Sequence record: MT446412.1
Reading direction: 5' to 3' (one strand)
From: Escherichia virus TH41
Length of the DNA stretch: 64,000 nt
Both the position numbers and the translations under genes were made by a program. Of the stretch, positions 87 through 55,735 are shown piece after piece; the first letter of the stretch is position 1; every line of letters begins with the position of its first letter. The notes under the pieces were generated by a model, which searched no databases, was not told the DNA's origin, and worked only from the letters and a program-made list of their open reading frames with translations.

Positions 87-1367
87 TTACGCCTCATAAA
101 TGATTGGCGGAAGTTTAACACCGAGCAGATAAGACATATTGCTCTGACCGGCCATTAAATCCATATTGGTTGCATCGATAATACGAGCTTCTTTATCGTC
201 TTTAGCAACGGTGTACGGGTTAGCTGAAAGTGCATAACGAACCATCAGAGAGATAGCCGGTTGCAAACTGTCAGGGTCCACAATGACCTTAAACGCGCCC
301 ACGTGTTCTTCATCATCTAAGTCCAGGCCTTCGGTATAAGGAGCATAGAAGATTGAGCCTACGACTTCATTTCCGCCATAATTTTCTTTAACGCCAACGG
401 TTACATAATCTAATGGACTGTTAACATCACAGAATACAGGAAGACCATTAATCAAATAACCGTATGCTGTTTCAGGAAGCCATTGTTCATCTTCAGGTTT
501 ATGCTTCAGCCAACCAGAACCGGCCAGCATAGCAGCAACACGGCTAGAGGCAACAACAAAGGTACCGGAATAAGATGTAGTTTTCTGAATCTCGGAGTTC
601 ATTTCGCAAACCAGTTCGTACAGTTTACGTGCGCCTTCTGGAGCTGCATCATATGTTAAATCGATGACGCCATTGTCAGAAACCCCAGTTACTTTATAAC
701 GCTTGGAAACGGTAATAAGAGACTGAAGAACATCTTTGTTAATTTCATCTGCCATAATAGTGGCAAGCAAGTCTTCCAGGAAAGCAGGAGCATTAAACCC
801 ATTTGCTTCCATATCCTGAGCAAGCTCAACAGTTAATGCAGTTTTCAATTTACGTGTTTTAACCGGAGCATTCCATTTGTTAACCTGGAATACGGCATTG
901 CTAATTTCAACATCACCGGCTTCAAATTTCTCGGTGTGCGCCGCATCAGGAACCAAACGAATGGTTAATGCAATAAGACCTTCTTGCAGAACATCGGATA
1001 ATACAGTTTCGGTAGTCGATGCAAACGGATTATCAACCAGAGCTTTATAAACGGTATTCTGAAATTTAATGTATCCGCCTTTAGCTACGGCCTGAGTTGG
1101 AGTTGTAAATTCCGGAATTGTTTCACGGTCTTTTGAACCAACTTCACCACCGTAAACGGCACCGGTTTGGAAACTGAATTCATTATCAGGAGTAAGATAT
1201 TTAACACCGTACAGAGCCGCAACTGGCTGGTTCGTACGTTGTTCAGCGATAATATCGCGGTAAATCAATTTGGTTGTAGCGCGGGTCAAAGCAACAAGAT
1301 TCGGGCGGCCCAATGAGTTGCTGGTAGTAGTAGTTGACTCGCGCAGTAATTTGTTAATCTTTGCCAT
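87..1367 (-). CDS. 24: Head vertex protein gp24
   Basis: 426-aa ORF; N-terminus MAKINKLLRESTTT... and C-terminal region closely resemble T4 gp24 as I recall it; gp23 paralogue; synteny next to 23. Confidence 0.85.
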   Translation of the reverse strand: MAKINKLLRESTTTTSNSLGRPNLVALTRATTKLIYRDIIAEQRTNQPVAALYGVKYLTPDNEFSFQTGAVYGGEVGSKDRETIPEFTTPTQAVAKGGYIKFQNTVYKALVDNPFASTTETVLSDVLQEGLIALTIRLVPDAAHTEKFEAGDVEISNAVFQVNKWNAPVKTRKLKTALTVELAQDMEANGFNAPAFLEDLLATIMADEINKDVLQSLITVSKRYKVTGVSDNGVIDLTYDAAPEGARKLYELVCEMNSEIQKTTSYSGTFVVASSRVAAMLAGSGWLKHKPEDEQWLPETAYGYLINGLPVFCDVNSPLDYVTVGVKENYGGNEVVGSIFYAPYTEGLDLDDEEHVGAFKVIVDPDSLQPAISLMVRYALSANPYTVAKDDKEARIIDATNMDLMAGQSNMSYLLGVKLPPIIYEA

Positions 1368-1393
1368 TTGCGCTTTCCTTTTGTGATATACTT

Positions 1394-1401
1394 TATTTAT
1401 A
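1394..1401 (-). promoter_or_regulatory. T4-type late promoter box TATAAATA upstream of gene 24
   Basis: Exact TATAAATA on minus strand about 27 bp upstream of the gene 24 start codon. Confidence 0.5.
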
Positions 1402-1407
1402 AAAGTT

Positions 1408-1437
1408 GTTTACAACCAGATTAAGATAAGACATAAT
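1408..1437 (+). promoter_or_regulatory. Early-type promoter (GTTTAC -35, cATAAT -10) for ORF 1479
   Basis: GTTTAC at 1408-1413, 18-bp spacer, CATAAT at 1432-1437, followed by conserved leader tccatactgagttaac also found before other plus-strand genes. Confidence 0.45.
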
Positions 1438-1478
1438 GATTCCATACTGAGTTAACAAACAAAACCCTGGGGTCCAAA

Positions 1479-1760
1479 ATGAACAAAGCAACTTTCCTTC
1501 TGAACACCTTTAAAAATCTGGAAATTGAAGTTATTGCATTGGTCAACAAATACCCGAATGGTGTTAATGGTAATGCTCTGAACAAACTAGTTAAAAAATA
1601 TGAAAACTTAGCATATGACACTGATTTCTGGTGGAATGGTAATTATTCTACTCACACTAAAGATAAAAATGGTAACTGGTTGAAACTTCAAGAAAACAAT
1701 GTTAACTTCAGAGACCTCATCAAGCGCCGGGTAGAAGTTCATTTAAATGGTATGGTATGA
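1479..1760 (+). CDS. Hypothetical small protein (93 aa) on opposite strand between late genes 24 and 23
   Basis: ATG start, own promoter-like sequence upstream and terminator downstream; no recognisable motif. Confidence 0.5.
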   Translation: MNKATFLLNTFKNLEIEVIALVNKYPNGVNGNALNKLVKKYENLAYDTDFWWNGNYSTHTKDKNGNWLKLQENNVNFRDLIKRRVEVHLNGMV

Positions 1761-1770
1761 AAACAAGAAA

Positions 1771-1792
1771 GGGACCTCAAGGGTCCCTTTTT
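1771..1792. terminator. Bidirectional rho-independent terminator
   Basis: gggacc-tcaag-ggtccc hairpin flanked by A-run upstream and T-run downstream; sits after ORF 1479 (plus) and after gene 23 (minus). Confidence 0.6.
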
Positions 1793-1810
1793 ATTTAACT
1801 TAATCTAGGA

Positions 1811-3370
1811 TTAAATTCCTTTAACATATACGCGGCGGAAGTAACCGTTCAAGCCGAGGCTATTAACGATGTCCGGCATACCATTCTGAATGCGCTTGGT
1901 CGGAGCCTGAGCAGCAGGGTCAGCAAACGGGTTGATACCGATACCGTAACGGGTTTTGAAGCCCATAACCGGCTGGAAGTTTTTCGGGTCAGAGCCACGC
2001 AGCGGGGTCAGTGCAACATATGGTGCGTAGTAGATACCAGCATCCATTTCGTTAGCGCCTTTGTAACCGATGGTGAAGTAATCTGCACGAGCATACTGGT
2101 CGATATAGACACGGTATTTGCCACCCAGAACACCAGCGAACACAGCTTTAGTGGTGTCAACGTTGAAACCTTTACCCAGACCCTGAGCAGCATAACTTAC
2201 AGAAGTATCAACAGCAGCCAGTACGTTAACTACGTTACGGGAAGCGATGATGAAGTTACCTGCACCACGACCGGTCTGACGAGCGATTTCAGCGGCTTCT
2301 TTATCAATCTGGAACAGTAAAGCTTTGAAGCTTTCACCAGCCCAACGAGCACCACGGATATCAATCGGGTCCTGGAAGTCAAACACACCAGCTTTAGCGC
2401 CAACGGTGTTGGTCATACCAGATTTACCAACCTGTGCGGAGTAGTTAATCCAATCGATAACTTCGCGGTTGATTTCCAGCATAATTTCGGTAGCCAGAAT
2501 ACCACTCAATTCGGCATCAGCATCCATACCGTGAACAGCGCGCAGGTCCTGTGCCAGTTCGATGGAGTAGCTTGCTTTCAGCTGACGGGATTTAGCTTCG
2601 ATAACTTGTTTGTCGATGCGGAAGCCCATTTCGTTCCACGGGTTATCAGAGGAACCGTTAAAACCTTCTTGCAGTTCGGCGATGGAGGTAGCCATACCTT
2701 CAGCCAGTTCAGCCAGCTGACCAGCTTCAACCAGAGCGGTAACAGCAGCGTCAAGTTTAGCAGCGTCAGTAGCAGCAGCATCAACAGTTACAGCTTCAAC
2801 AGCCTGGAAGTGTGCAGAACCAGTTGCTTCGAAGAAGTGAGAATAAATTTTACCAACTTCCAGAACTTTGCTTGCAGCCAGTGCTTCAAAAGTCTGAGCA
2901 GCGCCCTGACCAGAGAACATAGCGTTCGGAGCATACATCGGGTGGAAAGCTTCTTTAGCACCAGCAGCGACAGGGTCTTTACCGTAAACTGCACGCAGGG
3001 CAAATACCTGGCCAGTCGGGTTGTTCAGAGGCTGTACGCCACAAATATCAAACGCAATCAGATGCGGGATAGCACGACGAACCATACCCATAACTGCCGG
3101 CCCAATCTGAGTTACTGCACCAGAGGTCTGGCCAGCGGCGATATTGGTAGCATCATAACCATGGTCACCACCGATTTCAGCTTCGGTCAGGAAAGAACCA
3201 AATGCTTCGGAGATTTTTTCATCACGGTATTCAGGAGCGGTCAGGATATCTTGTTCCTGGTTTTCAAAGATTTTAGCGATGATAGCTTGTTTAGAAGCAC
3301 CAACGATTTCAGGAAGAGCTTCGTTTTCCAGCAGAGCGGACCATTTTTGAACTAATGCATTCTTTTTCAT
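1811..3370 (-). CDS. 23: Major capsid protein gp23
   Basis: 519-aa ORF; long stretches identical to T4 gp23 as recalled (e.g. GSFLTEAEIGGDHGY, AELSGILATEIMLEINREV, C-terminal YFRRVYVKGI). Confidence 0.95.
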   Translation of the reverse strand: MKKNALVQKWSALLENEALPEIVGASKQAIIAKIFENQEQDILTAPEYRDEKISEAFGSFLTEAEIGGDHGYDATNIAAGQTSGAVTQIGPAVMGMVRRAIPHLIAFDICGVQPLNNPTGQVFALRAVYGKDPVAAGAKEAFHPMYAPNAMFSGQGAAQTFEALAASKVLEVGKIYSHFFEATGSAHFQAVEAVTVDAAATDAAKLDAAVTALVEAGQLAELAEGMATSIAELQEGFNGSSDNPWNEMGFRIDKQVIEAKSRQLKASYSIELAQDLRAVHGMDADAELSGILATEIMLEINREVIDWINYSAQVGKSGMTNTVGAKAGVFDFQDPIDIRGARWAGESFKALLFQIDKEAAEIARQTGRGAGNFIIASRNVVNVLAAVDTSVSYAAQGLGKGFNVDTTKAVFAGVLGGKYRVYIDQYARADYFTIGYKGANEMDAGIYYAPYVALTPLRGSDPKNFQPVMGFKTRYGIGINPFADPAAQAPTKRIQNGMPDIVNSLGLNGYFRRVYVKGI

Positions 3371-3391
3371 GTGTTGTATAACCTTATTAAA

Positions 3392-4210
3392 TTAAGAAAT
3401 TCGTGATGCTGCGAGAGCAGACAAGTCCGCGAAGGACAGGGTAGGCTTGGCGCCTTTTTCTTCAACTGCTTCTGAAATGTAATTCAGTGCCGCAGCATCG
3501 TCTACATTTTTATTTATAGCGGCTTCGGTGATTGGTTTGTTGGTGGGTTCTACCTGACCTTTAACCATTTCAACGATAGCGCCAATTTTGGTACCGAATG
3601 CATCAGAGTATTCCATGCCTTCTACCAGAGAACCAACTTTTTCTTTTTGGGATTCAGTCAGGTCTTTAGTTGCTTCAGTCAACGCAACTTCACGTTGGAC
3701 ATAATTGATATAAGCATCACGCTTAGAAACTTCTTCGAACAGGCTAGCGGTTTCTTCTTTCTGTTCAGCCAGTTCTTCCTGCATTTCTGCGACAACATCG
3801 ACAGATTCTTCCGGAACAACAACGTTGTGCTCAACGAACAGTTCTTTCATGCCGGTGAACATGGATTCGAACAGGTCAGCTTTAATGCCACGGTCGACAG
3901 CCAGTTTATTTTCAGCAAGCCATTCTTTAGCAACGTGGTCCAGGAATTTAGCTGCAGATTCTTTCAGTTTTTTCTCTGCTTTTTCGTCGGATTCTTCTTT
4001 ATTCTTTTCGACTTCTTCTTCAGCTTTTTCAGCGATGGCGTGAATGTGAGATTCTGCCAGTTTGATGGCGTGTTGCTTGACGGTAGCTTCGAATACAGTG
4101 CCGAAGGTAGCTTTCGCTTCCGGGGACAAATTAACTGATTCGAAAATACTATCGAGAGCAACGGAAGCATCGATATTCTGAGCTTCAGAAATGAGTTGTT
4201 CTTTAAGCAT
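3392..4210 (-). CDS. 22: Prohead core scaffold protein gp22
   Basis: 272-aa acidic, Glu/Lys-rich ORF; N-terminus MLKEQLISEAQNIDASVALDSIFESVN resembles T4 gp22; synteny. Confidence 0.85.
   Translation of the reverse strand: MLKEQLISEAQNIDASVALDSIFESVNLSPEAKATFGTVFEATVKQHAIKLAESHIHAIAEKAEEEVEKNKEESDEKAEKKLKESAAKFLDHVAKEWLAENKLAVDRGIKADLFESMFTGMKELFVEHNVVVPEESVDVVAEMQEELAEQKEETASLFEEVSKRDAYINYVQREVALTEATKDLTESQKEKVGSLVEGMEYSDAFGTKIGAIVEMVKGQVEPTNKPITEAAINKNVDDAAALNYISEAVEEKGAKPTLSFADLSALAASRIS
3511..3518 (-). promoter_or_regulatory. Late promoter box TATAAATA upstream of gene 23 (inside 3' end of gene 22)
   Basis: Exact TATAAATA on minus strand about 140 bp upstream of the gene 23 ATG. Confidence 0.4.
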
Positions 4211-4239
4211 TTTGTAGTCCTGTTGTTAAGATATACATT

Positions 4240-4247
4240 TATTTATA
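4240..4247 (-). promoter_or_regulatory. Late promoter box TATAAATA upstream of gene 22
   Basis: Exact TATAAATA on minus strand 30 bp upstream of the gene 22 ATG. Confidence 0.5.
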
Positions 4248-4881
4248 ACGTCTTTAAAGCCTCTGCGAGAGCCATAAAGGCGTCATCGGCACTGGTATCG
4301 GCAACAGCCGTTTGTGATTCTGTAATCTGCTTTGGTTTGACCCAAGCGTCCGGAGCACTTGGCCCCCATACTGCGTCTACTCCAACCGTCAATTTAAAAC
4401 CTTCATTAACGATGCTATAACCTTTTGCTGATTTAGTCAGGGAACCGAGTCCACGACTAGATACGCCAGGAATCCAACCTGCTCTTATATTCGCAGCAAG
4501 TTTATCACCTGGACCATGGTCGCCTTCGATAATACGCGCGCGGCCATATACATCATTCCCTTTCCACCACATTTCCTCGATAATAATTGCTGCCTGCATA
4601 GGGTCAACGTTTGCGCGAGGTGGATGGTTTAATTCTCCAAGAGACTGCTTGGTTTCAACCTGTTCGGCGATATAGTCCGCAACGGCTTTTTCCAAAATAT
4701 GTTTAGGATAAAGTCGTTTATTACGGTTAACAACTTCAGCTTGTAGGAAAATACCTTCAATATAAAGTCCTGGCTTTAAACCGCTGCTGGAACCATCATG
4801 AGATTCCAACATCGGTACACCATCTTTAATTTCGCCCGGTTGACCCCAGTGTTCGATTAGTAACTCTGGTTTCTGTTCCAT
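4243..4881 (-). CDS. 21: Prohead protease gp21
   Basis: 212-aa ORF, same length as T4 gp21 as recalled; synteny between 68 and 22; 1-nt overlap with gene 68 stop. Confidence 0.85.
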   Translation of the reverse strand: MEQKPELLIEHWGQPGEIKDGVPMLESHDGSSSGLKPGLYIEGIFLQAEVVNRNKRLYPKHILEKAVADYIAEQVETKQSLGELNHPPRANVDPMQAAIIIEEMWWKGNDVYGRARIIEGDHGPGDKLAANIRAGWIPGVSSRGLGSLTKSAKGYSIVNEGFKLTVGVDAVWGPSAPDAWVKPKQITESQTAVADTSADDAFMALAEALKTL

Positions 4882-5309
4882 TAATCAAGTCCGAATGCTT
4901 TACGCTTAGCTCGAGCTTTTTTGCGCTTGCGCTCTGCTCTGATTTGCGTAGATGGGTTTGCTCTTTTCGTTTTAGTAGCCAGACGGGCAATTTGACGACG
5001 TTTAGCTTTAGAAAGACCAGTTGTTTGGAAAGCATTACGCTTACGAGTAGCTAGGTCTTTTGTGCGGGTTAACTCACCGCGAGACGATACATGTTTAACG
5101 ATAAATTCGTTAAGCTGAACACCTTCATTCAGAGCGCCGATAACCGTTGCTTTTTCGTATTCACCGGCTGCAAACATGTTTTCTACAATAATATTTATAT
5201 CGTCTTTTTCTAAGGCTTCAGATAATGAATCAAATTGTCCCTGAGCTTCTTCGGAAACACTTTCGATGTTTTCAAGAGTTAATTCGTAATCATCAGGGAT
5301 AATAAACAT
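4881..5309 (-). CDS. 68: Prohead core protein gp68
   Basis: 142-aa ORF with basic Lys/Arg-rich C-terminus; position between 67 and 21. Confidence 0.7.
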
Positions 5310-5560
5310 TATTCATCGTCCTCATCATCGTCGTCGCCTTCGTCAGCGTCATCAGATTCTTTTTTGTCTTTCTTTTCTGCTTTACCGTCGTCCTTGTCTT
5401 CATCTTCTTTAGGCTCTTCGCCTTCAATCATGATGGAACGTGCAATTTCAATCTTACGTTCTTCAATCAAACTACCGCATACTGGGCCAATGTTTTCAGC
5501 AAAATATTTGCGAACGGCTACGAGGTCGTTTGATTTAATGGCTTCAAATAAATCATCCAT
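5309..5560 (-). CDS. 67: Prohead core protein gp67
   Basis: 83-aa ORF with strongly acidic C-terminal tail ([11 protein letters not shown]); position between 20 and 68. Confidence 0.7.
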
Positions 5561-7134
5561 TAGAAATCCTCTTCTTCTTCTTCAGGGTTTTGGAAACGAG
5601 CCTCTTTGGACTCCAATTCAATTTGCTTAGCTTCTTGATTAATTTCTTCATCAGACATCTGGAGGAAATCCTTCATCGCCGTTTGATGCGAAATATATTT
5701 ACCGATAAACGGTTCAGCCATCGTTAGCATATTGATTCTGCGTTCCATGATTTCTGCATCTTTCATTTCGGTGAAATAGCTATCACGGTTGAACGTAACT
5801 TTAATATTATTTAGTTCCTTTTCCCATTCCTCTTCTGAAATAATTTTTTTCAGGATAAGGTTGGTTTTAAGCGGGTCGAGGAAAACTTCTTCAAATTTAT
5901 TCTGTAGCTGTCGAATCCATTTAGAGAAATTCAATTCATCGCGAGTAATTGTCGCGCCCGCATCAAACATAACGCCACTGTTTTGGTCATTAGGGATACG
6001 AGATAATGGAATTCGGAGAGCCTGATATAGGTTGTTCTTAAACCAGCGAACATCGTCCATATCCGACATGCCTTGTGCACCCGGGAGTGTATCAACTTCG
6101 GTGACTGCTTTACCATCACGACGTTGCAACCAATAGTCTTCTGTCATTGACATGTTGTGCTGTTGGTTTTTGATTTTACCCGTAGTTGCATCATATACGA
6201 CACGGTTTTTCATCGTGTTCATAATATGTTGCATGTGTGCTGCTGCTTTACGAGACGGCATATTCCCGGTATCGATATAAAAGACTCGGCGGTCTGGGGC
6301 ACGAGTTATACGATAAATGACTAAAGCATCTTCTAATAGTTTTAATTGGTTTGCAGGTTTAATTGCTCGTTGCAAGTATCCGATGATATTCTTGCCACAG
6401 CAATCAAGTAATCCAGAATGCGCATATACAATCGCCGCACGAGGAATTTTTATTTTAGTACCTGCTTCATATATACGACCATCGGCACAATAACTTTCAT
6501 GACCAGTATCGTATACAAAATATTCTCTGTAACCGTCGACAATTTTTGTACCGTTTTCCATGCGTGTAACGATTTCACGGATGAACTGGATTTGTCTTGG
6601 GTCAAGGCGACGAAGTTCTTGAACACCATCTTTAAGTTTTGATGGGTTGATAATTTTGTGGAAGAAAATTCGAGAATCCACATACCAACGTTTAAAATGG
6701 TCAGAACCTTTACGCTCGAAATTAAGGAGGTTATTGACTTCCAAAAATTCTTCGAGGATTCGGTCTTTAATTTTCTGACTAAATTCGGTAGCATCAAGGT
6801 TAAGAGCTACAACATCTTTACCGTCTTCAAAAACGATAGCATCAGACACAATTTCTTGCACTGCGTTATCAACTTCATAATTATTTAGTAAGTTGCGGTA
6901 GGTGTCAATTAATTCCCTGGTATTTTTTACTTCAGGTTCATTGCTCCCGAACATCTGTTGCATCAATGCATTATACGGGACGTTTTGTTCTTGTGACTCA
7001 ATTTCACGAGCCCCATCATCAAACTTCGGCCCGGTCATTGACTCTAAATTATTTTTTTCTTGTTGCTTATATTCTTGTTCATCTTCTTTAGCCCAAGGCT
7101 TAAGAAAATTTAGTATTGTGTTAAAACCTGCCAT
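5560..7134 (-). CDS. 20: Portal vertex protein gp20
   Basis: 524-aa ORF, same length as T4 gp20 as recalled; synteny. Confidence 0.9.
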
Positions 7135-33417: not shown

Positions 33418-34107
<690 letters not shown>

Positions 34108-34108
<1 letters not shown>

Positions 34109-34168: not shown

Positions 34169-34501
34169 ATGAACATCAAAACTTATAACGAGTTTTTAGC
34201 CGAATCCGCCATCAATGAGACCAAATCAATTGATGATAGTGAAGGCTCTCTGAAATTTGGTTTAACCAAAAACGCAGATGGTGTTTTCTTTCAGATTGGT
34301 AATGAACGTTTTCAAACGTCCAAATATTCCAAAGCTGCAGTTGAAGCTGTCCTAAAATCTGGTGGCAAGTGGAAAGGCAAAGAAGGTACTAAAGAAATTG
34401 GTATCGCTGTTGACGGTGGTATGGCTTATTTTAAAATTGGCGATGAACAATTTATTATGTCTGCTCGCGGACGTAAAGAACTGGCAAAACTTTATAAATA
34501 A
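34169..34501 (+). CDS. Internal-protein-like protein with capsid-targeting-sequence N-terminus
   Basis: Starts MNIKTYNEFLAES, matching T4 internal protein capsid targeting sequence with L-x-E cleavage motif; GGAG SD. Confidence 0.6.
   Translation: MNIKTYNEFLAESAINETKSIDDSEGSLKFGLTKNADGVFFQIGNERFQTSKYSKAAVEAVLKSGGKWKGKEGTKEIGIAVDGGMAYFKIGDEQFIMSARGRKELAKLYK
34493..34500 (+). promoter_or_regulatory. Late promoter box TATAAATA upstream of ip-like gene 34510
   Basis: Exact TATAAATA on plus strand overlapping the stop of the upstream gene. Confidence 0.45.
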
Positions 34502-34509
34502 GGTTTCTT

Positions 34510-34782
34510 ATGAAAACTTTCAATGAATTTTTCAACGAGTCACAACTGAATGAAGAAGTAAAAATTAGTAAAGCAGTCAAATCTATGATTGACAATATCA
34601 ATCACCTGTATAGCATTGACTTGACTGACCATATAACAATTGGTAACAAACGCAACTTTTTCGCGTTTGACATTTCAGAACTTGACCAGAACCAAATTAA
34701 TAACATTGAGCGTTTTGCCAATGACAAGGGTCTCCGTCATGAGACAGCTGGTTATAAAAAATATGCAATTTATCTAAAATAG
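34510..34782 (+). CDS. Internal-protein-like protein with CTS N-terminus
   Basis: Starts MKTFNEFFNES; late promoter box immediately upstream. Confidence 0.6.
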   Translation: MKTFNEFFNESQLNEEVKISKAVKSMIDNINHLYSIDLTDHITIGNKRNFFAFDISELDQNQINNIERFANDKGLRHETAGYKKYAIYLK

Positions 34783-34790
34783 GATTTCAA

Positions 34791-35090
34791 ATGCAAACTT
34801 TTCATGAATTTTTGGTAGAAAACAATTACCTGGCAGAAGCAAAAACCTGGCCTCTGGGTCTTCAGAAGAAAAACACCTACAAATGGGTTGACTTCAAAGG
34901 TAAAGGCGACGCTGAAGACTTTGACCAGCTGCGTAAAAATGGTTATACCTTCCTTGACTCTAACTATAACAAAATTACCTCTTTTAGTCAGAAGTCAAGC
35001 ATTGCCTTCATTGAAACTGGTAAGAACTCTCCTAAAGATATCACTGACGACTTCACCGCTTATGGTGTAATTCGTGGTTCAAAAATGTAA
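34791..35090 (+). CDS. Internal-protein-like protein with CTS N-terminus
   Basis: Starts MQTFHEFLVEN; paralogous to 48952-49215 (shared ...AEDF...RKNGY...IAF...DDI...F..YG.I.G.K). Confidence 0.6.
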   Translation: MQTFHEFLVENNYLAEAKTWPLGLQKKNTYKWVDFKGKGDAEDFDQLRKNGYTFLDSNYNKITSFSQKSSIAFIETGKNSPKDITDDFTAYGVIRGSKM

Positions 35091-35119
35091 TGTACACGAT
35101 GGGATAGTTGCAGTATAAT
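35091..35119 (+). promoter_or_regulatory. Early promoter / stem-loop cassette
   Basis: TGTACA -35-like, 17-bp spacer, TATAAT; gggat...atccc inverted repeat flanking -10; conserved leader atcccatcaactactggag. Confidence 0.45.
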
Positions 35120-35145
35120 TATCCCATCAACTACTGGAGCTACTA

Positions 35146-35424
35146 ATGAAAACTTATCAAGAATTTATTAACGAATCAATTAGTCACCCGGATATGCTGG
35201 AAGACCTGAAAGGACATCTGATGGTTAAGGCCAAACCGGTTGATGGTGGCGCATTTGAGTTGTTTCTTGTTAAAGGCGAAAACGGTCCTGATAACAAGAA
35301 AGTTTCAGCAATGATGTTGACTAAAGGTTACAAAGTCAGTTCTTCCTGGAATGCTCCATTCACTTACGCGGTAAGCCCTCGTGAACTGAAAAAAGTTAAA
35401 GCTGGACAATATACAAAAATTTAG
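35146..35424 (+). CDS. Internal-protein-like protein with CTS N-terminus
   Basis: Starts MKTYQEFINES. Confidence 0.65.
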   Translation: MKTYQEFINESISHPDMLEDLKGHLMVKAKPVDGGAFELFLVKGENGPDNKKVSAMMLTKGYKVSSSWNAPFTYAVSPRELKKVKAGQYTKI

Positions 35425-35478
35425 TGTACGTGATGGGATAACTGTAGTATGATTATCTCATCAACTACTGGAGACCAC

Positions 35479-35733
35479 ATGAAAACTTATCAAGAATTTA
35501 TTACTGAATCTGCAAATGCAAAAGTTGAGTTTGCTTATGTTGGTTCGCCGCGTGGCAGTTTTTCCAATGAGGAATTCCGTCGTTCACTGGACAATTTCAT
35601 GCAGTTAAGTGCTGAAGTATCGCATGATGGTCGTTATGACATCGTTACTATTAGCGGTTCTGAAGACCTTATCAAAAAGTGGCACAAGCAGAAAGATGTT
35701 GAGATGCGTTACTATCGTATCCCTAAAAAATAA
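35479..35733 (+). CDS. Internal-protein-like protein with CTS N-terminus
   Basis: Start placed at internal ATG giving MKTYQEFITES; promoter cassette upstream. Confidence 0.65.
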   Translation: MKTYQEFITESANAKVEFAYVGSPRGSFSNEEFRRSLDNFMQLSAEVSHDGRYDIVTISGSEDLIKKWHKQKDVEMRYYRIPKK

Positions 35734-35790
35734 GTGTACTTTTAAATGGGATAGTGTATGATTATCCCATCAACTACTGAGGAGAATAAA

Positions 35791-35976
35791 ATGAAACGTT
35801 GCGAATTAATTAGAAATGTTACTGCCCTTGTTGCTGTTACCACTTTTGGTTTTAGCATGTTTGCTGGCTTTATGTTGAATATGCTTTCAACTTCTGAGAA
35901 TATAATCTCTTTAGTAGTTGCATTTTTAATTGGTTCAATCTCTTTCGTTATGGATAAAATCTCTAAAGGTGAGTAA
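35791..35976 (+). CDS. Small hydrophobic (likely membrane) protein, 61 aa
   Basis: Two hydrophobic segments; GAGGAG SD; promoter cassette upstream. Confidence 0.5.
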   Translation: MKRCELIRNVTALVAVTTFGFSMFAGFMLNMLSTSENIISLVVAFLIGSISFVMDKISKGE

Positions 35977-37236: not shown

Positions 37237-37312
37237 GGCCCTGTAGCTCAATTGGTTAGAGCATCCGGCTCATAACTGGCAGGTTTCCGGTTCAAGTCCG
37301 GATGGGGCCACC
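37237..37312 (+). tRNA. tRNA with CAT anticodon (Met or Ile2-type)
   Basis: Hand-folded cloverleaf: 7-bp acceptor stem (two G-U pairs), D-arm GCTC/GAGC, anticodon loop CTCATAA, T-loop TTCAAGT, discriminator A. Confidence 0.75.
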
Positions 37313-37389
37313 CGGGGTGTAGCTCAATTGTATAGAGCAACGGTCTTCTAAACCGTAGGTTGTGGGTTAGAATCCCACCACCCCGACCA
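37313..37389 (+). tRNA. tRNA-Arg (anticodon TCT)
   Basis: Hand-folded cloverleaf: perfect 7-bp acceptor stem, anticodon stem ACGGT/ACCGT with loop CTTCTAA, T-arm GTGGG-TTAGAAT-CCCAC, encoded CCA. Confidence 0.85.
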
Positions 37390-37835: not shown

Positions 37836-37843
37836 TATAAATA
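37836..37843 (+). promoter_or_regulatory. Late promoter box TATAAATA upstream of ORF 37875
   Basis: Exact TATAAATA on plus strand 32 bp upstream of the ATG. Confidence 0.45.
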
Positions 37844-37874: not shown

Positions 37875-38258
37875 ATGCTTACATATGCAGAATTTTTAAA
37901 TCGCAATACCATCACCGAATCCGTACTGACTGAAGCTGGCAAATTTTCTTTAGTGGCTCCAGAAAAAGCCGGCGTTTCAATTGGTGACCGTGTTATGTTC
38001 AAGAAACCAGTTAATGGCGTTTCTTGGGGTATCGTAACTGGGTTTGGTATCAAAGCTAAAGATGTTAAAAACGCCGCCGCGCCAGGTGCTAAACTAGCCG
38101 GTTCCAAAGTTTCAACTTATATGGTTCGTCCTAAACAGTCTCCAGGTAATGGTGCCGCTGACTGGGTTGGTGCTCCAATCGAAATCGCTCGTGATAAATT
38201 CTTGAACATCACTGACCGTGCCAACGAACGCGCTGCAATGGCATTCGCTCGCGGATAA
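37875..38258 (+). CDS. Candidate internal protein with divergent CTS-like N-terminus
   Basis: Starts MLTYAEFLNRNTITES (..TY.EF.. plus I-T-E cleavage-type motif); late promoter box upstream; terminator downstream. Confidence 0.45.
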   Translation: MLTYAEFLNRNTITESVLTEAGKFSLVAPEKAGVSIGDRVMFKKPVNGVSWGIVTGFGIKAKDVKNAAAPGAKLAGSKVSTYMVRPKQSPGNGAADWVGAPIEIARDKFLNITDRANERAAMAFARG

Positions 38259-39481: not shown

Positions 39482-39510
39482 TTTTACTTCCAGATGGGAT
39501 AGTGTATAAT
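39482..39510 (+). promoter_or_regulatory. Early promoter / stem-loop cassette
   Basis: TTTTAC -35-like, 17-bp spacer, TATAAT; gggatag...tatccca inverted repeat flanking -10. Confidence 0.45.
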
Positions 39511-39552
39511 TATCCCATACTGAGTTACCAAATAAACAAACGGGAAAATAAA

Positions 39553-47137: not shown

Positions 47138-47588
47138 GAAAAACAAGGTGAAAGAATTATCTGCTGGCATTATTTTCATGACTGAAGATAAAGAGTTATT
47201 CATGGGTCGTGTGACCGGTTCTCGTAAACCAGGTATGCCTGCACACAAATGGGACATCCCTAAGGGTCATGTTGAAGCTGGTGAATCCCCGATTGAAGCG
47301 GCTATTCGTGAAACCGAAGAAGAAACTGGGTTTACCCAATACGACCCGGCATTCTTAAAAGACCTCGGTGAGTTCCGTTATTCAGATAATAAAAACCTTC
47401 ACCTGTTTTTGTATACGGTTCCTGTCGAGCATGAACAATTCAGGCACAGTAAATGCTCTGCCTATCATACCTTCCCGGATGGCAGTTCGGTCCCAGAGTT
47501 CGATGCATTTGCTCTGATTAAACCGAGTCAATGGCAGTACGTGATGGGTAAATCGATGTACAAGGTAATGACTCAAATTTTCGGATAA
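47130..47588 (+). CDS. nudE: Nudix hydrolase NudE (e.1)
   Basis: Nudix box GHVEAGESPIEAAIRETEEETG; position immediately upstream of lysozyme e. Confidence 0.85.
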   Translation: MSRKNKVKELSAGIIFMTEDKELFMGRVTGSRKPGMPAHKWDIPKGHVEAGESPIEAAIRETEEETGFTQYDPAFLKDLGEFRYSDNKNLHLFLYTVPVEHEQFRHSKCSAYHTFPDGSSVPEFDAFALIKPSQWQYVMGKSMYKVMTQIFG

Positions 47589-47591
47589 TAA

Positions 47592-47613
47592 ATACCCCTA
47601 TATAAGGGGGTAT
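47592..47613 (+). promoter_or_regulatory. Hairpin sequestering the lysozyme e ribosome-binding site, with late-promoter-like box in 5' arm
   Basis: ATACCCC-tatataag-GGGGTAT hairpin ending 1 nt before the e ATG; aATAAATA (7/8 of TATAAATA) at 47587-47594 overlapping the 5' arm. Confidence 0.5.
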
Positions 47614-47614
47614 T

Positions 47615-48103
47615 ATGAATATATTCGAAATGTTACGCATAGATGAAGGTTGTAAGTTGGATTTGTATAAAGATACAGAAGGCTTTTGGACCATCGGTAT
47701 CGGGCAACTGATAACTAAGAACCCATCGAAAGATGTAGCTCGCGCTGAGCTCGACAAGCTTATGGGTCGTGTTTGTAATGGTCGCATAACCCAGCACGAA
47801 GCTGAAACATTGTTTAATCGTTCGGTCGAAAAAGCTAAAGCCGGAATCTTGAGACACCCTGTCTTAAAACCTGTTTATGATGTACTGGATGAAGTTCGTC
47901 GTTGTGCGCTCATTAATATGGTATTCCAGATGGGTGTTGCTGGTGTTGCTGGTTTTCCTAAGGGTATGCGATTGTTGAAGGCTAAATCATGGGAAGCCGC
48001 CGCTAAGGAACTGGCCGACTCGAGATGGTATAAAGTCCAGACTCCGAACCGGGCTAAACGAGTTATCGAAACTTTCCGCACCGGAACTTTTGACGCATAT
48101 TAG
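47615..48103 (+). CDS. e: Endolysin (T4 lysozyme e homologue)
   Basis: 162 aa; [12 protein letters not shown]...DTEG..TIGIG...[12 protein letters not shown]...[17 protein letters not shown] closely matches T4 lysozyme. Confidence 0.95.
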
Positions 48104-48131
48104 TGTACATCTCCAAATGGTAGGGTTATAA
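48103..48131 (+). promoter_or_regulatory. Early promoter cassette upstream of denV
   Basis: GTGTAC, spacer, TATAAT flanked by taggg...cccta inverted repeat; leader tatcaactacggag. Confidence 0.4.
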
Positions 48132-48158
48132 TGGCCCTATCAACTACGGAGAACAAAC

Positions 48159-48575
48159 ATGACTCGCATTAATTTAACTCTGGTATCTGAACTTGCTGAC
48201 CAACATCTTATGGCTGAATATCGTGAGCTTCCTCGCGTGTTTGGTGCAGTTCGCAAACATATACAAAATGGTAAAAAGGTTTCTGACTTTAAAATTCCAT
48301 CATCTTTTCTTTTAGGAACTGGTCATGTCACCTTCTTTTATGATAAACTTTTGTTCCTTAAAAACCGTCATCAAGAACTTATTGCGGAATGTTTAAAGCG
48401 AGGGTTTAACATAAAAGATATTTCTACCCAAGATTTAAATGATATTCCTGATGAATGGAAGAATGATTATCAACCATCAATCTGGTCAATTGAAATCAGT
48501 CAAGCCAGACTGAATGAGAAAATTTCTCAAAAGCCTACCTGGTACAAATACTATGGGAAAGCTGTGTACGCTTAA
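48159..48575 (+). CDS. denV: Endonuclease V (pyrimidine dimer DNA glycosylase)
   Basis: 138 aa; N-terminus [31 protein letters not shown] matches T4 endo V. Confidence 0.9.
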
Positions 48576-48593
48576 CTAAAAAGGTTGTATAAT
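48564..48593 (+). promoter_or_regulatory. Early promoter (GTGTAC -35-like, TGTATAAT extended -10)
   Basis: 18-bp spacer; overlaps the denV 3' end. Confidence 0.4.
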
Positions 48594-48623
48594 GATTTTA
48601 TCAACCAAACAATGGAATATAAA

Positions 48624-48938
48624 ATGAAAACTTATCAAGAATTTATTACTGAATCTACCCAAAAACGTGTTGAAGGCGGTTATGTCTGGATTGAACAGTT
48701 AACCCCACCAAGTGAAACAAGCACAGGTTCATGGAAAATTACTGTTGATGGTCCTGGCGGCAAACGCAAGACTATTAAAGAAATTAAAGGCTATTATGAT
48801 GAAGCTAAATCATGGGCGGGTAGTCATGTAATGCAGATTAAAATTGCAAATCCGGATAACGTTCATGCAGCAAAAGCATTCCGTCGTATTGGTAATAAAC
48901 TTTATGATGCGTTTTTGCGCGATTTCCCTAAAGCTTAA
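48624..48938 (+). CDS. Internal-protein-like protein with CTS N-terminus
   Basis: Start placed at internal ATG giving MKTYQEFITES. Confidence 0.65.
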   Translation: MKTYQEFITESTQKRVEGGYVWIEQLTPPSETSTGSWKITVDGPGGKRKTIKEIKGYYDEAKSWAGSHVMQIKIANPDNVHAAKAFRRIGNKLYDAFLRDFPKA

Positions 48939-48951
48939 TTAAAGAGACATT

Positions 48952-49215
48952 ATGAAAACGTATCAAGAATTTATTACTGAATCTGCCAAAGCTCCTGCTG
49001 GTTCCTTTAAAGTCCGCGCCTTCGCTGGCGATGCTGAAGACTTTGGCACCATGAAGCGCAATGGTTATTCTTTCTTTGGTGGCGATGGTAAAGAAATTGT
49101 CACATATGCAAAACGTCGCGAAATCGCATTCGTGGTTGCTGGTAAGAAAGTTGATGCTGACGATATTGAATGGGACTTTGAGACCTTTGGTATTGTTTCT
49201 GGCGGTAAAGCATAA
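48952..49215 (+). CDS. Internal-protein-like protein with CTS N-terminus
   Basis: Starts MKTYQEFITES; paralogue of 34791-35090. Confidence 0.65.
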   Translation: MKTYQEFITESAKAPAGSFKVRAFAGDAEDFGTMKRNGYSFFGGDGKEIVTYAKRREIAFVVAGKKVDADDIEWDFETFGIVSGGKA

Positions 49216-49217
49216 CT

Positions 49218-49246
49218 GTTTACTTTATGATGGGATAGTGTATAAT
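49218..49246 (+). promoter_or_regulatory. Early promoter / stem-loop cassette
   Basis: GTTTAC, 17-bp spacer, TATAAT; gggatag...tatccca inverted repeat; conserved leader. Confidence 0.45.
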
Positions 49247-49274
49247 TATCCCATCAACTACTGAGGAGAATAAA

Positions 49275-49472
49275 ATGTTAACTTATAAAGAATTTATGAA
49301 AGAAGTTAAAAAACTTAAAAAGACTTCTGGCGATGTTAAAATTGAAATCCATGGTCAAAACGTAAATGTGGTAGCGGATGGCCAGGCATTAGTTCTTTAT
49401 AGTGATAAAGACCAAGAATTTCGTGAAGCACAAAAGAAAAAATTTACCGTATGGCTTAAAAAAGCTGTTTAA
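49275..49472 (+). CDS. Internal-protein-like protein with divergent CTS
   Basis: Starts MLTYKEFMKEV; 65 aa. Confidence 0.5.
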   Translation: MLTYKEFMKEVKKLKKTSGDVKIEIHGQNVNVVADGQALVLYSDKDQEFREAQKKKFTVWLKKAV

Positions 49473-49480
49473 GGACCAAT

Positions 49481-49780
49481 ATGAAAACGTATCAAGAATT
49501 TATCACAGAAGCCAAAGCTCCTAAAGCATTTCAAATCGGAGTCCAGGGCAATTTAGACCAACAATATGTTGATGCTATTGTCGCAAGCCTCGGTAAACAA
49601 GGTGTACAAGTGGATTTGGTTGATTTTACTAAAGGTAATACTTTTAATATTGTCGCATCTAAAGGTTCTTTAGCTAAAGTTAAAAAGGCCTTTGGCGTAG
49701 CACAAGCATATGAAATTGACCATTCTGAATTAGAAAATAAAGGTCGCCAGAACACAATTAAAGGCTCTGGTTCTTTTTAA
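49481..49780 (+). CDS. Internal-protein-like protein with CTS N-terminus
   Basis: Starts MKTYQEFITEA. Confidence 0.65.
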   Translation: MKTYQEFITEAKAPKAFQIGVQGNLDQQYVDAIVASLGKQGVQVDLVDFTKGNTFNIVASKGSLAKVKKAFGVAQAYEIDHSELENKGRQNTIKGSGSF

Positions 49781-49941
49781 TAAAGGCAAACCGACCCTCT
49801 CCTCATGAACTTCGTGTCCTCTGAGTGATGGACCTTTCCCTACCTGTAATAAGGTCGAGCCCGAGTGCGGTAAGGGGTTTACATTCGGATACATGGACGA
49901 ATTAATGTGCCAAGGAATGGCCCCACAACTAAGAGACAACT

Positions 49942-50469
49942 ATGAAATTTTTAACTCCCATTTATCTAACTTTAATGCACGCCTTCGCTGAACGCGCCAT
50001 TGAACGCTTAGATTCAGACCAATACACCTGGTATGAACCCGCTTCAAGAATGCAAGAGTTTGGTACCCTTAGACTTGACGGTGGAAGACAAACAGGTAAA
50101 ACAAGTGCCATTGCGCAGTTCGCGGCGGATTGGGTTTCTAAAGGTAATGATGTGATTGTTATGTCGAGTTCTTCGCATCGCTCACGAGAAATCTGTAATA
50201 TAATAAAGCGGGTGTCTAAGGCACAACCACATCTTAATGTTGAACGACCTGGATTCGTTGTCTATGATACTGTACGCAGTTTCCTTGATGAAGATAATTT
50301 TCATAAGTACCGTGGATTGCGTTTTACGCGTCTTTTAATCATTATTGAAGAACCTATTCGCCTCCCTGCAATGGATAAGTTCTATGAAGCTTATCAGGTA
50401 ATGATGAATAAATTTATGTGTCAAGGTGATAAGCCTTTGCCACTGTTCTTTGTGATAGGAATGCAATGA
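49942..50469 (+). CDS. Small P-loop NTPase-like protein (175 aa)
   Basis: Walker A GGRQTGKTS and Walker B-like LLIIIEEP. Confidence 0.5.
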   Translation: MKFLTPIYLTLMHAFAERAIERLDSDQYTWYEPASRMQEFGTLRLDGGRQTGKTSAIAQFAADWVSKGNDVIVMSSSSHRSREICNIIKRVSKAQPHLNVERPGFVVYDTVRSFLDEDNFHKYRGLRFTRLLIIIEEPIRLPAMDKFYEAYQVMMNKFMCQGDKPLPLFFVIGMQ

Positions 50470-55678: not shown

Positions 55679-55720
55679 TTTACATCACCATAAAAAGGGT
55701 GTACTATTATCCCATCAACT
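55679..55720 (+). promoter_or_regulatory. Early promoter cassette
   Basis: GTTTAC and GTGTAC elements followed by tattatcccatcaactactgaggag leader. Confidence 0.4.
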
Positions 55721-55735
55721 ACTGAGGAGAACACA

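Follow-up and report, generated by a model that had tools for sequence, protein, structure and literature searches.

Introduction

Among phage proteins, the internal proteins are the first that the host encounters. The three of T4, Ip1, Ip2 and Ip3, which are mutually unrelated, each inhibit a distinct GmrSD-type type IV restriction enzyme, and the two loci that carry ip genes have been described as an anti-defence hotspot (PMC12373910). The passages on these genes in the literature present both loci as hypervariable and refer to at least ten Ip families (PMC12373910, citing Repoila 1994; PMC3012670), and ten ip genes that Silas et al. tried on new GmrSD systems gave no new inhibition (PMC12373910). 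The roles of the leader residues were established by experiment on IPIII, where Tyr4 and Phe7 serve targeting and Ile/Leu8 and Glu10 serve processing by the gp21 protease (PMC9026906 section 2.6). Promoter/terminator activity and mini-circles of PeSL (promoter-early stem-loop) elements were experimentally shown for RB49 and phi1 only (PMC2839356).

The present analysis concerns a 64,000-nucleotide stretch of Escherichia virus TH41 (record MT446412.1), hereafter the window. Positions 48624-49780 correspond to the Ip locus between e and vs.8, which is one of two Ip hotspots known in T-even phages. They very probably represent this locus in a Gaprivervirus-like T4-type phage as four independent cassettes (B1-B4, cluster B) that would encode CTS cargo by analogy with T4, in an array shaped by recombination. 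Cluster B is ordinary for its phage group, except that it contains one rare additional cassette and clear traces of recombination.

Organization of the locus between e and vs.8

The window is about 95% identical to the Gapriverviruses SP18 and VR7, in which these genes occupy the same position and carry the existing annotations Ip10, "internal head protein" and Ip7. The features of the locus, together with two head genes located elsewhere in the window, are the following.

47615..48103, + strand: e (lysozyme), left anchor; 98-100% amino acid identity to e of SP18/VR7 and 67% to T4 e
48104..48151, + strand: PeSL-like promoter and stem-loop directly 5' of denV; GTACAT, 17-nt spacer, TATAAT, then CCTATCAACTACGGAG
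48159..48575, + strand: denV (endonuclease V), ahead of the Ip cassettes; 99% identity to denV of SP18/VR7
48624..48938, + strand: B1, Ip10-family CTS gene, leader MKTYQEFITE|S; annotated here as lp10 in SP18 and ip10 in VR7
48952..49215, + strand: B2, CTS gene of the RB69 ORF125c family, A3 paralogue, start MKTYQEFITES; 'internal head protein' in RefSeq SP18/VR7
49219..49265, + strand: PeSL; TTTACT, 16-nt spacer, TATAAT, hairpin TGATGGGATA/TATCCCATCA, then Shine-Dalgarno GAGGAG
49275..49472, + strand: B3, rare 65-aa cassette with compressed leader MLTYKEFMKE; match in TH44, indel relative to SP18/VR7
49481..49780, + strand: B4, Ip7-family CTS gene, leader MKTYQEFITE|A; annotated here as ip7 in VR7; phrog_2667, E 2e-42
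49831..50469, + strand: vs.8, right anchor; tblastn with T4 vs.8, residues 3-219, E 5e-41
3392-4210, - strand: gp22 scaffold; Pfam T4_CASP, E 6e-91
4243-4881, - strand: gp21 prohead protease; Pfam Peptidase_S77, E 8e-102

The gene order is e, ipIII, ipII, denV, vs.8 in T4 and e, denV, B1-B4, vs.8 here, with a gap of only 55 nt and no ORF between e and denV. The initial annotation had stated that the CTS genes lie 3' of denV and that the e-denV interval is empty, unlike in T4, and the two gene orders bear this out. The layout is real but not peculiar to the window, being typical of Gaprivervirus, and RB69 likewise has CTS genes after denV. The gp21 protease and the gp22 scaffold, the machinery that a CTS needs, are both encoded within the window.

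The element directly upstream of denV (48104-48151) scored 10/12 in the promoter scan and contains the common CCYATCAACTWSKGAG motif. At the right end, the called ORF of vs.8 spans 49942-50469, while positions 49831-49941 are in frame with the N-terminus of T4 vs.8 and this N-terminal part is interrupted by a TAA at 49930. The GC-rich stretch 49781-49941, called intergenic, was also considered as an RNA, for which Rfam returned nothing and the folding z-score was +0.7; the RNA reading was dropped because tblastn identifies the region as the interrupted N-terminal part of vs.8.

The capsid-targeting leader and the coding status of the cassettes

The four plus-strand ORFs reported after denV were confirmed, with the starts MKTYQEFITES (twice), MLTYKEFMKEV and MKTYQEFITEA as claimed. 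In the six-frame translation of the window the leader motif M[KLQ]T[YF]xEF has 9 matches against 0.004-0.005 expected (more than 2000-fold enrichment), all of them on the + strand and each at an ORF start; a tenth gene beside these matches is A1, which starts MNIKTYNEF. The earlier count of nine CTS genes in the window is correct, and a candidate tenth lies at 37875-38258 (X, see below). B1, B2 and B4 keep Tyr4 and Phe7, the targeting residues, as well as Ile8 and Glu10, those of processing.

The ORFs are short and devoid of Pfam domains (in Pfam the ten CTS proteins yielded nothing beyond sub-threshold noise), as might be expected of chance or non-functional frames in a variable intergenic region. 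The probability of such an origin is practically nil given the enrichment of the leader motif, the homologues of B2 and B4 in 200-280 phage genomes and the substitution pattern. Compared with Gaprivervirus orthologues (1-10 per gene), most differences in the ORFs are synonymous and the crude dN/dS values of 0-0.24 fall in the same range as those of e and denV, which indicates real genes under purifying selection. Conservation together with the substitutions refutes the chance reading.

Cassettes B1, B2 and B4

Two alternative starts exist for B1, a TTG at 48585 (taken by the ORF lister) and an ATG at 48612. This gene matches phrog_3966 (E 3e-32), shows a crude dN/dS of 0-0.02 and would yield a mature protein of about 10.5 kDa with a pI of 9.7. 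B2 is present in 208 phage records and matches phrog_2667 ('internal head protein'); B1 and B2 are homologous to RB69 ORF124c and ORF125c (66% and 71%, respectively). With the leader removed, B4 is 45% identical to 'internal head protein 7' of T2 (E 3e-22). Ip7 (phage T2) and Ip10 (phage Pol) reportedly belong to the Ip4-Ip10 series, which later papers and annotations attribute to Repoila et al. 1994.

The PHROGs groupings (B1 with A1 in phrog_3966; B2 with A3 and B4 in phrog_2667) were considered as further cross-cluster paralogues and rejected. A1/B1 and B4/B2 are unrelated by BLASTP and hhalign (probability <1%) once the leaders are removed, so that these groupings are taken as leader-driven.

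Outside the leader, BLASTP detected no body similarity of B1-B4 to T4 IPII, IPIII or RB69 IpI. A sequence search of solved structures with B2 and B4 returned nothing meaningful, and the deep homologue search for B2 returned only 4 clusters, so that its alignment is shallow and the AlphaFold2 model (5 sequences, pLDDT 58) unusable. The AF2 models of B2 and B3 were either too weak or without a matching fold, and offered no functional lead.

PeSL elements and promoters

In the PeSL at 49219-49265 (promoter score 10/12) the -10 hexamer lies inside the hairpin, whose stem has 10 perfect pairs, and the promoter fits the T4/PST PeSL consensus TTTACW-N17-TAYWAT (PMC4122927). The arrangement GATGGGATA-N9-TATCCCATC occurs in 3 exact copies in the window against 0.01 expected, and positions 49230-49277 are 98% identical over 48 nt to 35746-35793. 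When the window and TH44 are compared with SP18 and VR20, this PeSL marks the 5' boundary of the B3 indel, the 3' boundary being the leader of B4.

The canonical late promoter TATAAATA is absent from the + strand between 37843 and 54892, a span that includes cluster B; ahead of e, at 47587, lies the nearest late-promoter candidate, AATAAATA. Capsid cargo would have to be expressed late, while proheads are being built, and the missing promoter was counted against the cargo reading of cluster B. Both A2 and X have TATAAATA.

The rare cassette B3

B3 is the one new item in the cluster. Among 50,697 phage records a single one, TH44, contains it, a search of 5.8e9 proteins gave only 2 clusters, and no named relative emerged from PHROGs, the phage records or that protein search. 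The gene is present in the window and in TH44, from which it differs by 6 synonymous and 2 non-synonymous changes, and absent from SP18, VR7 and VR20; its family occurs between e and denV in contigs L094-L096. The closest relative, P0002, has a perfect leader, MKTYNEFITE, and B3 is devoid of 12 residues that are present in P0002, ITE among them (missing segment ITEAESITNSYF). In what is left of the leader Tyr4, Phe7 and Glu10 are kept and position 8 is Met, not Ile/Leu. The CTS start that the initial annotation saw in MLTYKEFMKEV is consequently present but atypical, since the canonical I-T-E cleavage-site segment has been lost with respect to the nearest relative.

The AlphaFold2 model of B3 (pLDDT 74) has an alpha-beta3-alpha arrangement, with residues 4-18, leader included, in the N-terminal helix. 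A Foldseek search of the PDB with this model gave nothing at E <= 0.001, the best match being SRP9/14 (TM 0.46).

These properties leave some room for a different fate of B3, namely that it is not capsid cargo but an early cytoplasmic protein, made from a PeSL early promoter of its own, on which recombination has left the CTS-like start as a scar. The early-type promoter with a strong Shine-Dalgarno sequence, the loss of ITEAESITNSYF, the Met at position 8 and the placement of residues 4-18 in a helix of a folded domain all agree with this proposal, which is nevertheless considered rather unlikely. Tyr4 and Phe7, which matter for targeting, are retained along with Glu10, and in T4 even an uncleavable CTS directs its protein to the capsid (PMC9026906). 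Furthermore, B3 is located inside the Ip array, its nearest relative has a perfect leader, and A4 and A5 have PeSL promoters too, yet canonical leaders.

Cassette exchange among Gapriverviruses

Seven different contents of the interval were found among twelve Gapriverviruses. In these genomes an identical 62-nt post-denV region plus leader is followed by the body of B1, B2 or B4, and the exchange junction after denV falls within the leader-coding sequence (12 Gapriverviruses). RZ retains one cassette and the window four, VR26 has a B2/B4 hybrid as its second gene, ip7 of VR7 opens with the codons ATGTTAACTTAT of B3 joined to the leader of B4, and B3 itself is an insertion between the PeSL and the next leader. 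Exchange also reaches beyond the genus and beyond a single locus: the Ip7 family (B4) occupies the 57B locus in T2, RB69 and CC31, the A1 family occurs in the e-denV interval in other phages, and the Gapriverviruses CJ20, P896 and MN01 carry T4 ipII at 96% identity, although their e is just 67% identical to that of T4. Comparing both loci across relatives, the check proposed for cassette exchange, therefore did detect movement between loci.

The features, homologies, junctions and purifying selection are established from these sequences, whose comparison shows an array that evolves through homologous recombination between short repeats of two kinds. The first is the stretch of about 25-35 nt that encodes the leader (ATGAAAACNTATCAAGAATTTATYAC), at which bodies are swapped, deleted or inserted in frame; a crossover there leaves the expression signals upstream in place and the leader functional. 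The second is the PeSL promoter/stem-loop described above.

A bolder proposal, put forward tentatively and with more doubt than confidence, is that the leader acts as an in-frame portable recombination site and that B3 is its natural product, a leader fused onto a cargo helix with loss of I-x-E. If true, the two Ip loci would work as a cassette system that needs no recombinase, and any body arriving behind the leader would immediately be expressed and routed to the capsid. B3 would then be packaged uncleaved or cut at a non-canonical M-K-E, widening the rules of T4 capsid targeting and processing.

The cluster after 57B and the A3/B2 paralogy

The second Ip locus of the window, together with the additional candidate gene, comprises the following features.

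34169..35733, + strand: first Ip cluster, after 57B; A1 34169-34501, A2 34510-34782, A3 34791-35090, A4 35146-35424, A5 35479-35733
37875..38258, + strand: X, candidate tenth CTS-like gene from the motif scan; start MLTYAEFLNRNTITES, leader MLTYAEFLNRNTITE|S

The first cluster is 99% identical to and collinear with that of phage UPEC01 and contains PeSL-like hairpins at 35098-35138 and about 35430-35470. X begins 39 nt after the late-promoter motif (37836-37843) and has counterparts of 99-100% identity in just 15 phage records, each of them annotated as hypothetical; it has no PHROG match.

The initial annotation regarded the ORF at 48952 (B2) as a paralogue of that at 34791 (A3), and the pairwise alignment it called for upholds this. 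By BLASTP the full-length proteins are 33% identical (E 1e-16) and, with leaders removed, 38% identical over 61 residues (E 3e-14), A3/B2 being the sole pair of CTS proteins in the window with significant body similarity. This exclusiveness, and the PeSL repeats common to both loci (48 nt, 98% identity) that would permit transfer, could suggest a recent copy between loci within this lineage and an active cross-locus duplication. Such an event is very improbable and already contradicted, as identity reaches just 33-38% and, in the Salmonella Gelderlandviruses, A3 orthologues (75% identity) lie beside 57B and B2 orthologues (78%) at the e-vs.8 locus of the same genomes. Each copy keeps its own locus in Gaprivervirus and Gelderlandvirus, hence the duplication predates the split of the genera. 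The idea that cassettes were duplicated or shuffled between the two loci consequently stands for the Ip7/B4 and A1 families, whose movement is real, and not for A3/B2, an old duplication rather than a recent shuffle.

Proposed function

Packaging, cleavage, injection and anti-defence activity of B1-B4 are inferred from analogy with T4. Each cassette would encode a small protein of about 6-10 kDa after processing, three of them basic and one near neutral. The T4-type capsid-targeting leader would bind the gp22 scaffolding core while proheads assemble, after which gp21 would cleave behind Glu10 (I-T-E|S/A), and the mature protein would remain in the head to be injected with the DNA. Once injected, it would most likely block a specific host defence, as T4 Ip1-3 do. 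A literature search for virion proteomics of a Gaprivervirus and for injection data on B1-B4 found none.

As regards the defence targeted, an anti-GmrSD activity of B1-B4 would be pure analogy, because past the leader they do not resemble IPII, IPIII or IpI. This dissimilarity does not exclude GmrSD inhibition, since Ip1-3 are themselves mutually unrelated. The DNA modification of Gaprivervirus is itself unknown (PMC8056088), which was counted against the proposed function, as was the outcome of the tests by Silas et al.

The packaged proteins might instead serve mainly the virion, through neutralisation of DNA charge or core/head assembly, and not inhibit host defences. Mature B1, B3 and B4 are basic (pI 9.3-9.7), the IPs of T4 attach to DNA when salt is low, and mutants in IPIII assemble heads more slowly and form polyheads (PMC9026906 section 2.3), all of which would suit a virion role. 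This role is nonetheless improbable: the cassettes come and go freely between phages whose head genes are almost the same (one in RZ, four in the window), which argues against a structural requirement, mature B2 is not basic (pI 6.2), and all three T4 Ips have defined restriction-enzyme targets (PMC12373910). Inhibition of host defence by injected cargo thus continues to be the preferred function.

The nine or ten candidate internal proteins of the window are a useful pool for screening Ip genes against defence systems, and the twelve near-identical genomes with seven cassette combinations constitute a clean natural experiment on exchange sites. The locus is also useful for engineering capsid-delivered cargo.

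Comparison with known systems

No new kind of system is revealed by this locus. It shares with T4 IPI-IPIII the leader (MKTYQEFI-x-E in T4, MKTYQEFITE here), the same two loci (after 57B; e to vs.8), the small size of the proteins and the presence of genes for gp21 and gp22. It differs in that the bodies are without similarity to IPII, IPIII and IpI, and in that the cassettes lie after denV, not before, and number four versus two in T4. Ip7 is at the denV locus here, whereas T2, RB69 and CC31 have it at 57B, and RB69 has the order 125c then 124c, which differs from the order here.

With the PeSL cassettes of T4-type phages (Arbiol 2010 PMC2839356; Comeau 2014 PMC4122927) the locus has in common an early sigma-70-like promoter overlying a stem-loop, the stop-to-ATG placement, the concentration in hyperplastic regions and the bounding of indels between close relatives. 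In contrast to those elements, the stem sequence GATGGGATA/TATCCCATC is specific to the group here, and within the Ip array the in-gene leader-coding sequence is the more frequent crossover site.

Like anti-defence hotspots (anti-CRISPR loci) and integron-like arrays, the locus gathers many unrelated small genes in a fixed slot, with variable presence among close relatives. Unlike them it involves neither a dedicated recombinase nor an att site; exchange relies on general homologous recombination between short repeats, one of which is coding and would supply a functional targeting peptide.

Gene order and the leader ORFs

The window comes from a T4-type myovirus, and across nucleotides 47600-50000 it shares ~95% identity with two Gapriverviruses, Shigella phage SP18 and Escherichia phage VR7. 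The order on the plus strand is gene 1, 57A, 57B, five ORFs (34169-35733; cluster A, A1 to A5) opening with the capsid-targeting leader (CTS) of T4-type internal head proteins (Ip), two tRNA genes, nudE, e, denV, four further leader ORFs (cluster B, B1 to B4) and vs.8.

87-7134, opposite strand to the Ip clusters, head genes gp24, gp23, gp22, gp21 and gp20, including the prohead protease (Peptidase_S77) and scaffold protein
47615-48103, plus strand, e
48159-48575, plus strand, denV
48624-48938, plus strand, B1, starting MKTYQEFITES
48952-49215, plus strand, B2, starting MKTYQEFITES
49219-49265, plus strand, promoter-early stem-loop (PeSL) before B3, with an early-type promoter (TTTACT, 16 nt, TATAAT)
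49275-49472, plus strand, B3, starting MLTYKEFMKEV
49481-49780, plus strand, B4, starting MKTYQEFITEA

All four CTS-like ORFs that the initial annotation had placed after denV were recovered with the N-termini it had given. Six-frame translation of the window returned nine copies of M[KLQ]T[YF]xEF (chance expectation 0.004), all on the plus strand and at ORF starts. Differences between B1-B4 and their 1-10 Gaprivervirus orthologues are overwhelmingly synonymous, with a crude dN/dS of 0-0.24, equal to that of e and denV; all four are real genes. The initial annotation was also right that T4 carries ip genes between e and denV (e, ipIII, ipII, denV, vs.8), the corresponding gap in the window being 55 nt.

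Between its two Ip loci the window has no more than two tRNA genes, Met-CAT and Arg-TCT (37237-37389); T4 has eight in that position. In relatives, 57B (33653-34108), the gene that anchors cluster A, goes under the names of RNA ligase, cyclic-nucleotide phosphodiesterase and the anti-CBASS protein Acb1, so that cluster A directly adjoins another counter-defence gene. The GC-rich gap before vs.8 (49781-49941), called intergenic, is 91-99% conserved in Gapriverviruses. Its reading as an RNA was rejected, since the alignment with T4 vs.8 starts at 49831 with residue 3 of that protein, in the frame of the 49942 ORF, and is broken upstream of this ORF by a TAA at 49930.

Cassette content and junctions within the leader

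The e-to-vs.8 interval of the window was compared with that of 12 Gapriverviruses to look for cassette exchange among related genomes; contents vary, and the junctions fall in the leader.

Ip cassettes in the e-to-vs.8 interval (genome; between e and denV; after denV)
Window; none; B1 B2 B3 B4
SP18, VR7; none; B1 B2 B4
VR20, VR25; another Ip; B1 B2 B4
CJ20; T4-like ipII; B1 B2 B4
TH44; another Ip; B2 B3 B4
P896; T4-like ipII; B2 B4
ECML-359; none; B2 B4
VR26; none; B1, then B2/B4 hybrid
UPEC01; none; B1 B2
RZ; none; B4
MN01; T4-like ipII; B4

The 62 nt 3' of denV and the first ~23 nt of the next gene (ATGAAAACTTATCAAGAATTTAT) are identical in every compared genome, and the body behind them is B1, B2 or B4 depending on the genome, which places the junction inside the leader-coding sequence. 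The second Ip gene of VR26 (locus L009, ~4794) has the upstream region and first codons of B2 and the body of B4, the crossover lying within the shared leader and AKAP codons. The ip7 gene of VR7 opens with ATGTTAACTTAT, a start peculiar to B3, and continues into the B4 leader (MLTYQEFITE; locus L002, 3100-3180); it is preceded by a truncated stem-loop, a PeSL cut in half, and lacks a Shine-Dalgarno sequence. This start is the scar of a B3-type cassette that was lost. These junctions are footprints of homologous recombination between leader repeats, which within the window match exactly over 23-35 nt.

Movement between loci and genera

B2 had been proposed as a paralogue of A3 (34791-35090), with CTS genes duplicated or shuffled between the two loci. 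Pairwise alignment supports the paralogy (33% identity, E 1e-16; 38%, E 3e-14 with leaders removed); no other pair among the ten leader proteins, counting candidate X below, shows similarity once the leader is removed. In Salmonella Gelderlandviruses, A3 orthologues (75% identity) stand beside 57B, and the same genomes carry B2 orthologues (78%) at their e-vs.8 locus. The duplication thus stands as an old one, and movement is seen for relatives of Ip7 and A1; a recent A3/B2 shuffle is not supported. In T2, RB69 and CC31, Ip7 relatives occupy the 57B locus, whereas in the window they lie at the denV locus; three other phages have A1 relatives in the e-denV interval, and one metagenomic contig has IpIII 3' of denV.

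Three Gapriverviruses, CJ20 (L089), P896 (L090) and MN01 (L093), carry T4 ipII at 96% protein identity between e and denV, genes that themselves share no more than 67% and 77% identity with T4, a contrast that indicates a recent single-cassette exchange between genera. Cluster A is 99% identical to that of UPEC01, which lacks B3 and B4; the window is itself a mosaic.

PeSL elements and denV

In the PeSL before B3 the -10 hexamer lies within a perfect 10-bp hairpin, followed by a GAGGAG ribosome-binding site. Exact copies of the core occur at 35748, 39496 and 49232 (0.01 expected), the second within a copy at 39496-39516; degenerate copies lie 5' of A4, A5 and denV, and another at 55690-55726. 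The copy at 35746-35793 matches the one before B3 at 98% over 48 nt, yet the gene behind it (35788-35976, MKRCELIRNV...) encodes a small predicted membrane protein that has no leader, so that the same element serves Ip and non-Ip cassettes.

A PeSL-like promoter and hairpin (48104-48151), with a CCYATCAACTAC-GAG tail as in Ip cassettes, belongs to denV itself, which therefore also looks like a mobile cassette. This agrees with its variable position (in T4 it follows the Ips, in the window it precedes them and in RB69 it lies between them) and with its absence from Salmonella phage S16.

The rare cassette B3 and candidate X

Neither PHROG nor Pfam has a family for B3, which occurs in just one of 50,697 phage records (TH44, unannotated) and falls into two clusters among 5.8 billion proteins. 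Its nearest relative (P0002, 73% identical), located between e and denV, has a canonical leader, MKTYNEFITE, followed by AESITNSYFNKEAKKLKK. Relative to it B3 lacks 12 residues including the ITE site, so that MLTYKEF is joined directly to MKEVKKLKK; Tyr4, Phe7 and Glu10 are retained, with Met at position 8. In an AlphaFold model (pLDDT 74) of a predicted alpha-beta3-alpha fold, residues 4-18 belong to the opening helix; no significant structural neighbours were found.

In locus L032 (3437-3940), a 167-aa ORF between e and denV combines an Ip body of another family with a B3-like body, joined by the degenerate leader MNESFLNEA, as if two neighbouring cassettes had merged in a single reading frame.

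X (37875-38258, plus strand, 127 aa) begins MLTYAEFLNRNTITES and has Tyr4 and Phe7 without Glu10, its I-T-E site ending at residue 15. A perfect TATAAATA late-promoter motif lies 39 nt upstream (37836-37843). Just 15 phage records contain X (99-100% identity), each time labelled hypothetical; SP18 and VR7 lack it, and no PHROG matches it. X may be the tenth leader gene of the window, a candidate internal protein, so far unannotated, whose propeptide would be longer.

Relation to known internal protein loci

By analogy with T4, B1, B2 and B4, and possibly B3, would be packaged, cleaved by gp21, injected and active against host defence. In T4, every one of Ip1, Ip2 and Ip3 blocks its own GmrSD-type restriction enzyme (PMC12373910); outside the leader, none of the three resembles any cluster B protein. 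The restriction type that Gapriverviruses face would depend on their DNA modification (compare PMC8056088). A search for a canonical late promoter for cluster B found none.

Phrog_3966 joins A1 with B1, and phrog_2667 joins B4 with B2 and A3, though the bodies of A1 and B1, and of B4 and B2/A3, are unrelated. The common leader appears to cause this grouping, and annotation transfer inside either family is unreliable.

Recombination at the leader is not claimed here as new, because Repoila et al. reportedly suggested as early as 1994 that the ipI locus is shuffled at conserved motifs. What is added is a clear junction map that places recombination inside the leader-coding sequence, together with B3, a new cassette that is rare and has an atypical leader, and X as a possible tenth leader gene.

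The feature is of a known kind, already annotated in close relatives, and was correctly observed and interpreted in the initial annotation. SP18 and VR7 have the same genes in the same place; there B1 is annotated as Ip10, B2 as an internal head protein resembling RB69 ORF125c, and B4 as Ip7 or internal head protein. With its leader removed, B4 shares 45% identity with T2 "internal head protein 7". The leader retains the residues important in T4 IPIII, where experiments assigned Tyr4 and Phe7 to targeting and residues 8 and 10 to gp21 cleavage (PMC9026906, section 2.6). T-even internal proteins are a highly diverse set whose only common feature is the capsid-targeting sequence (PMC3012670), and T-even phages have two Ip loci and at least 10 Ip families (PMC12373910). 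Cluster B is therefore the Gaprivervirus version of the second Ip locus already known, and RB69 likewise carries B2 and B1 homologues directly 3' of denV.
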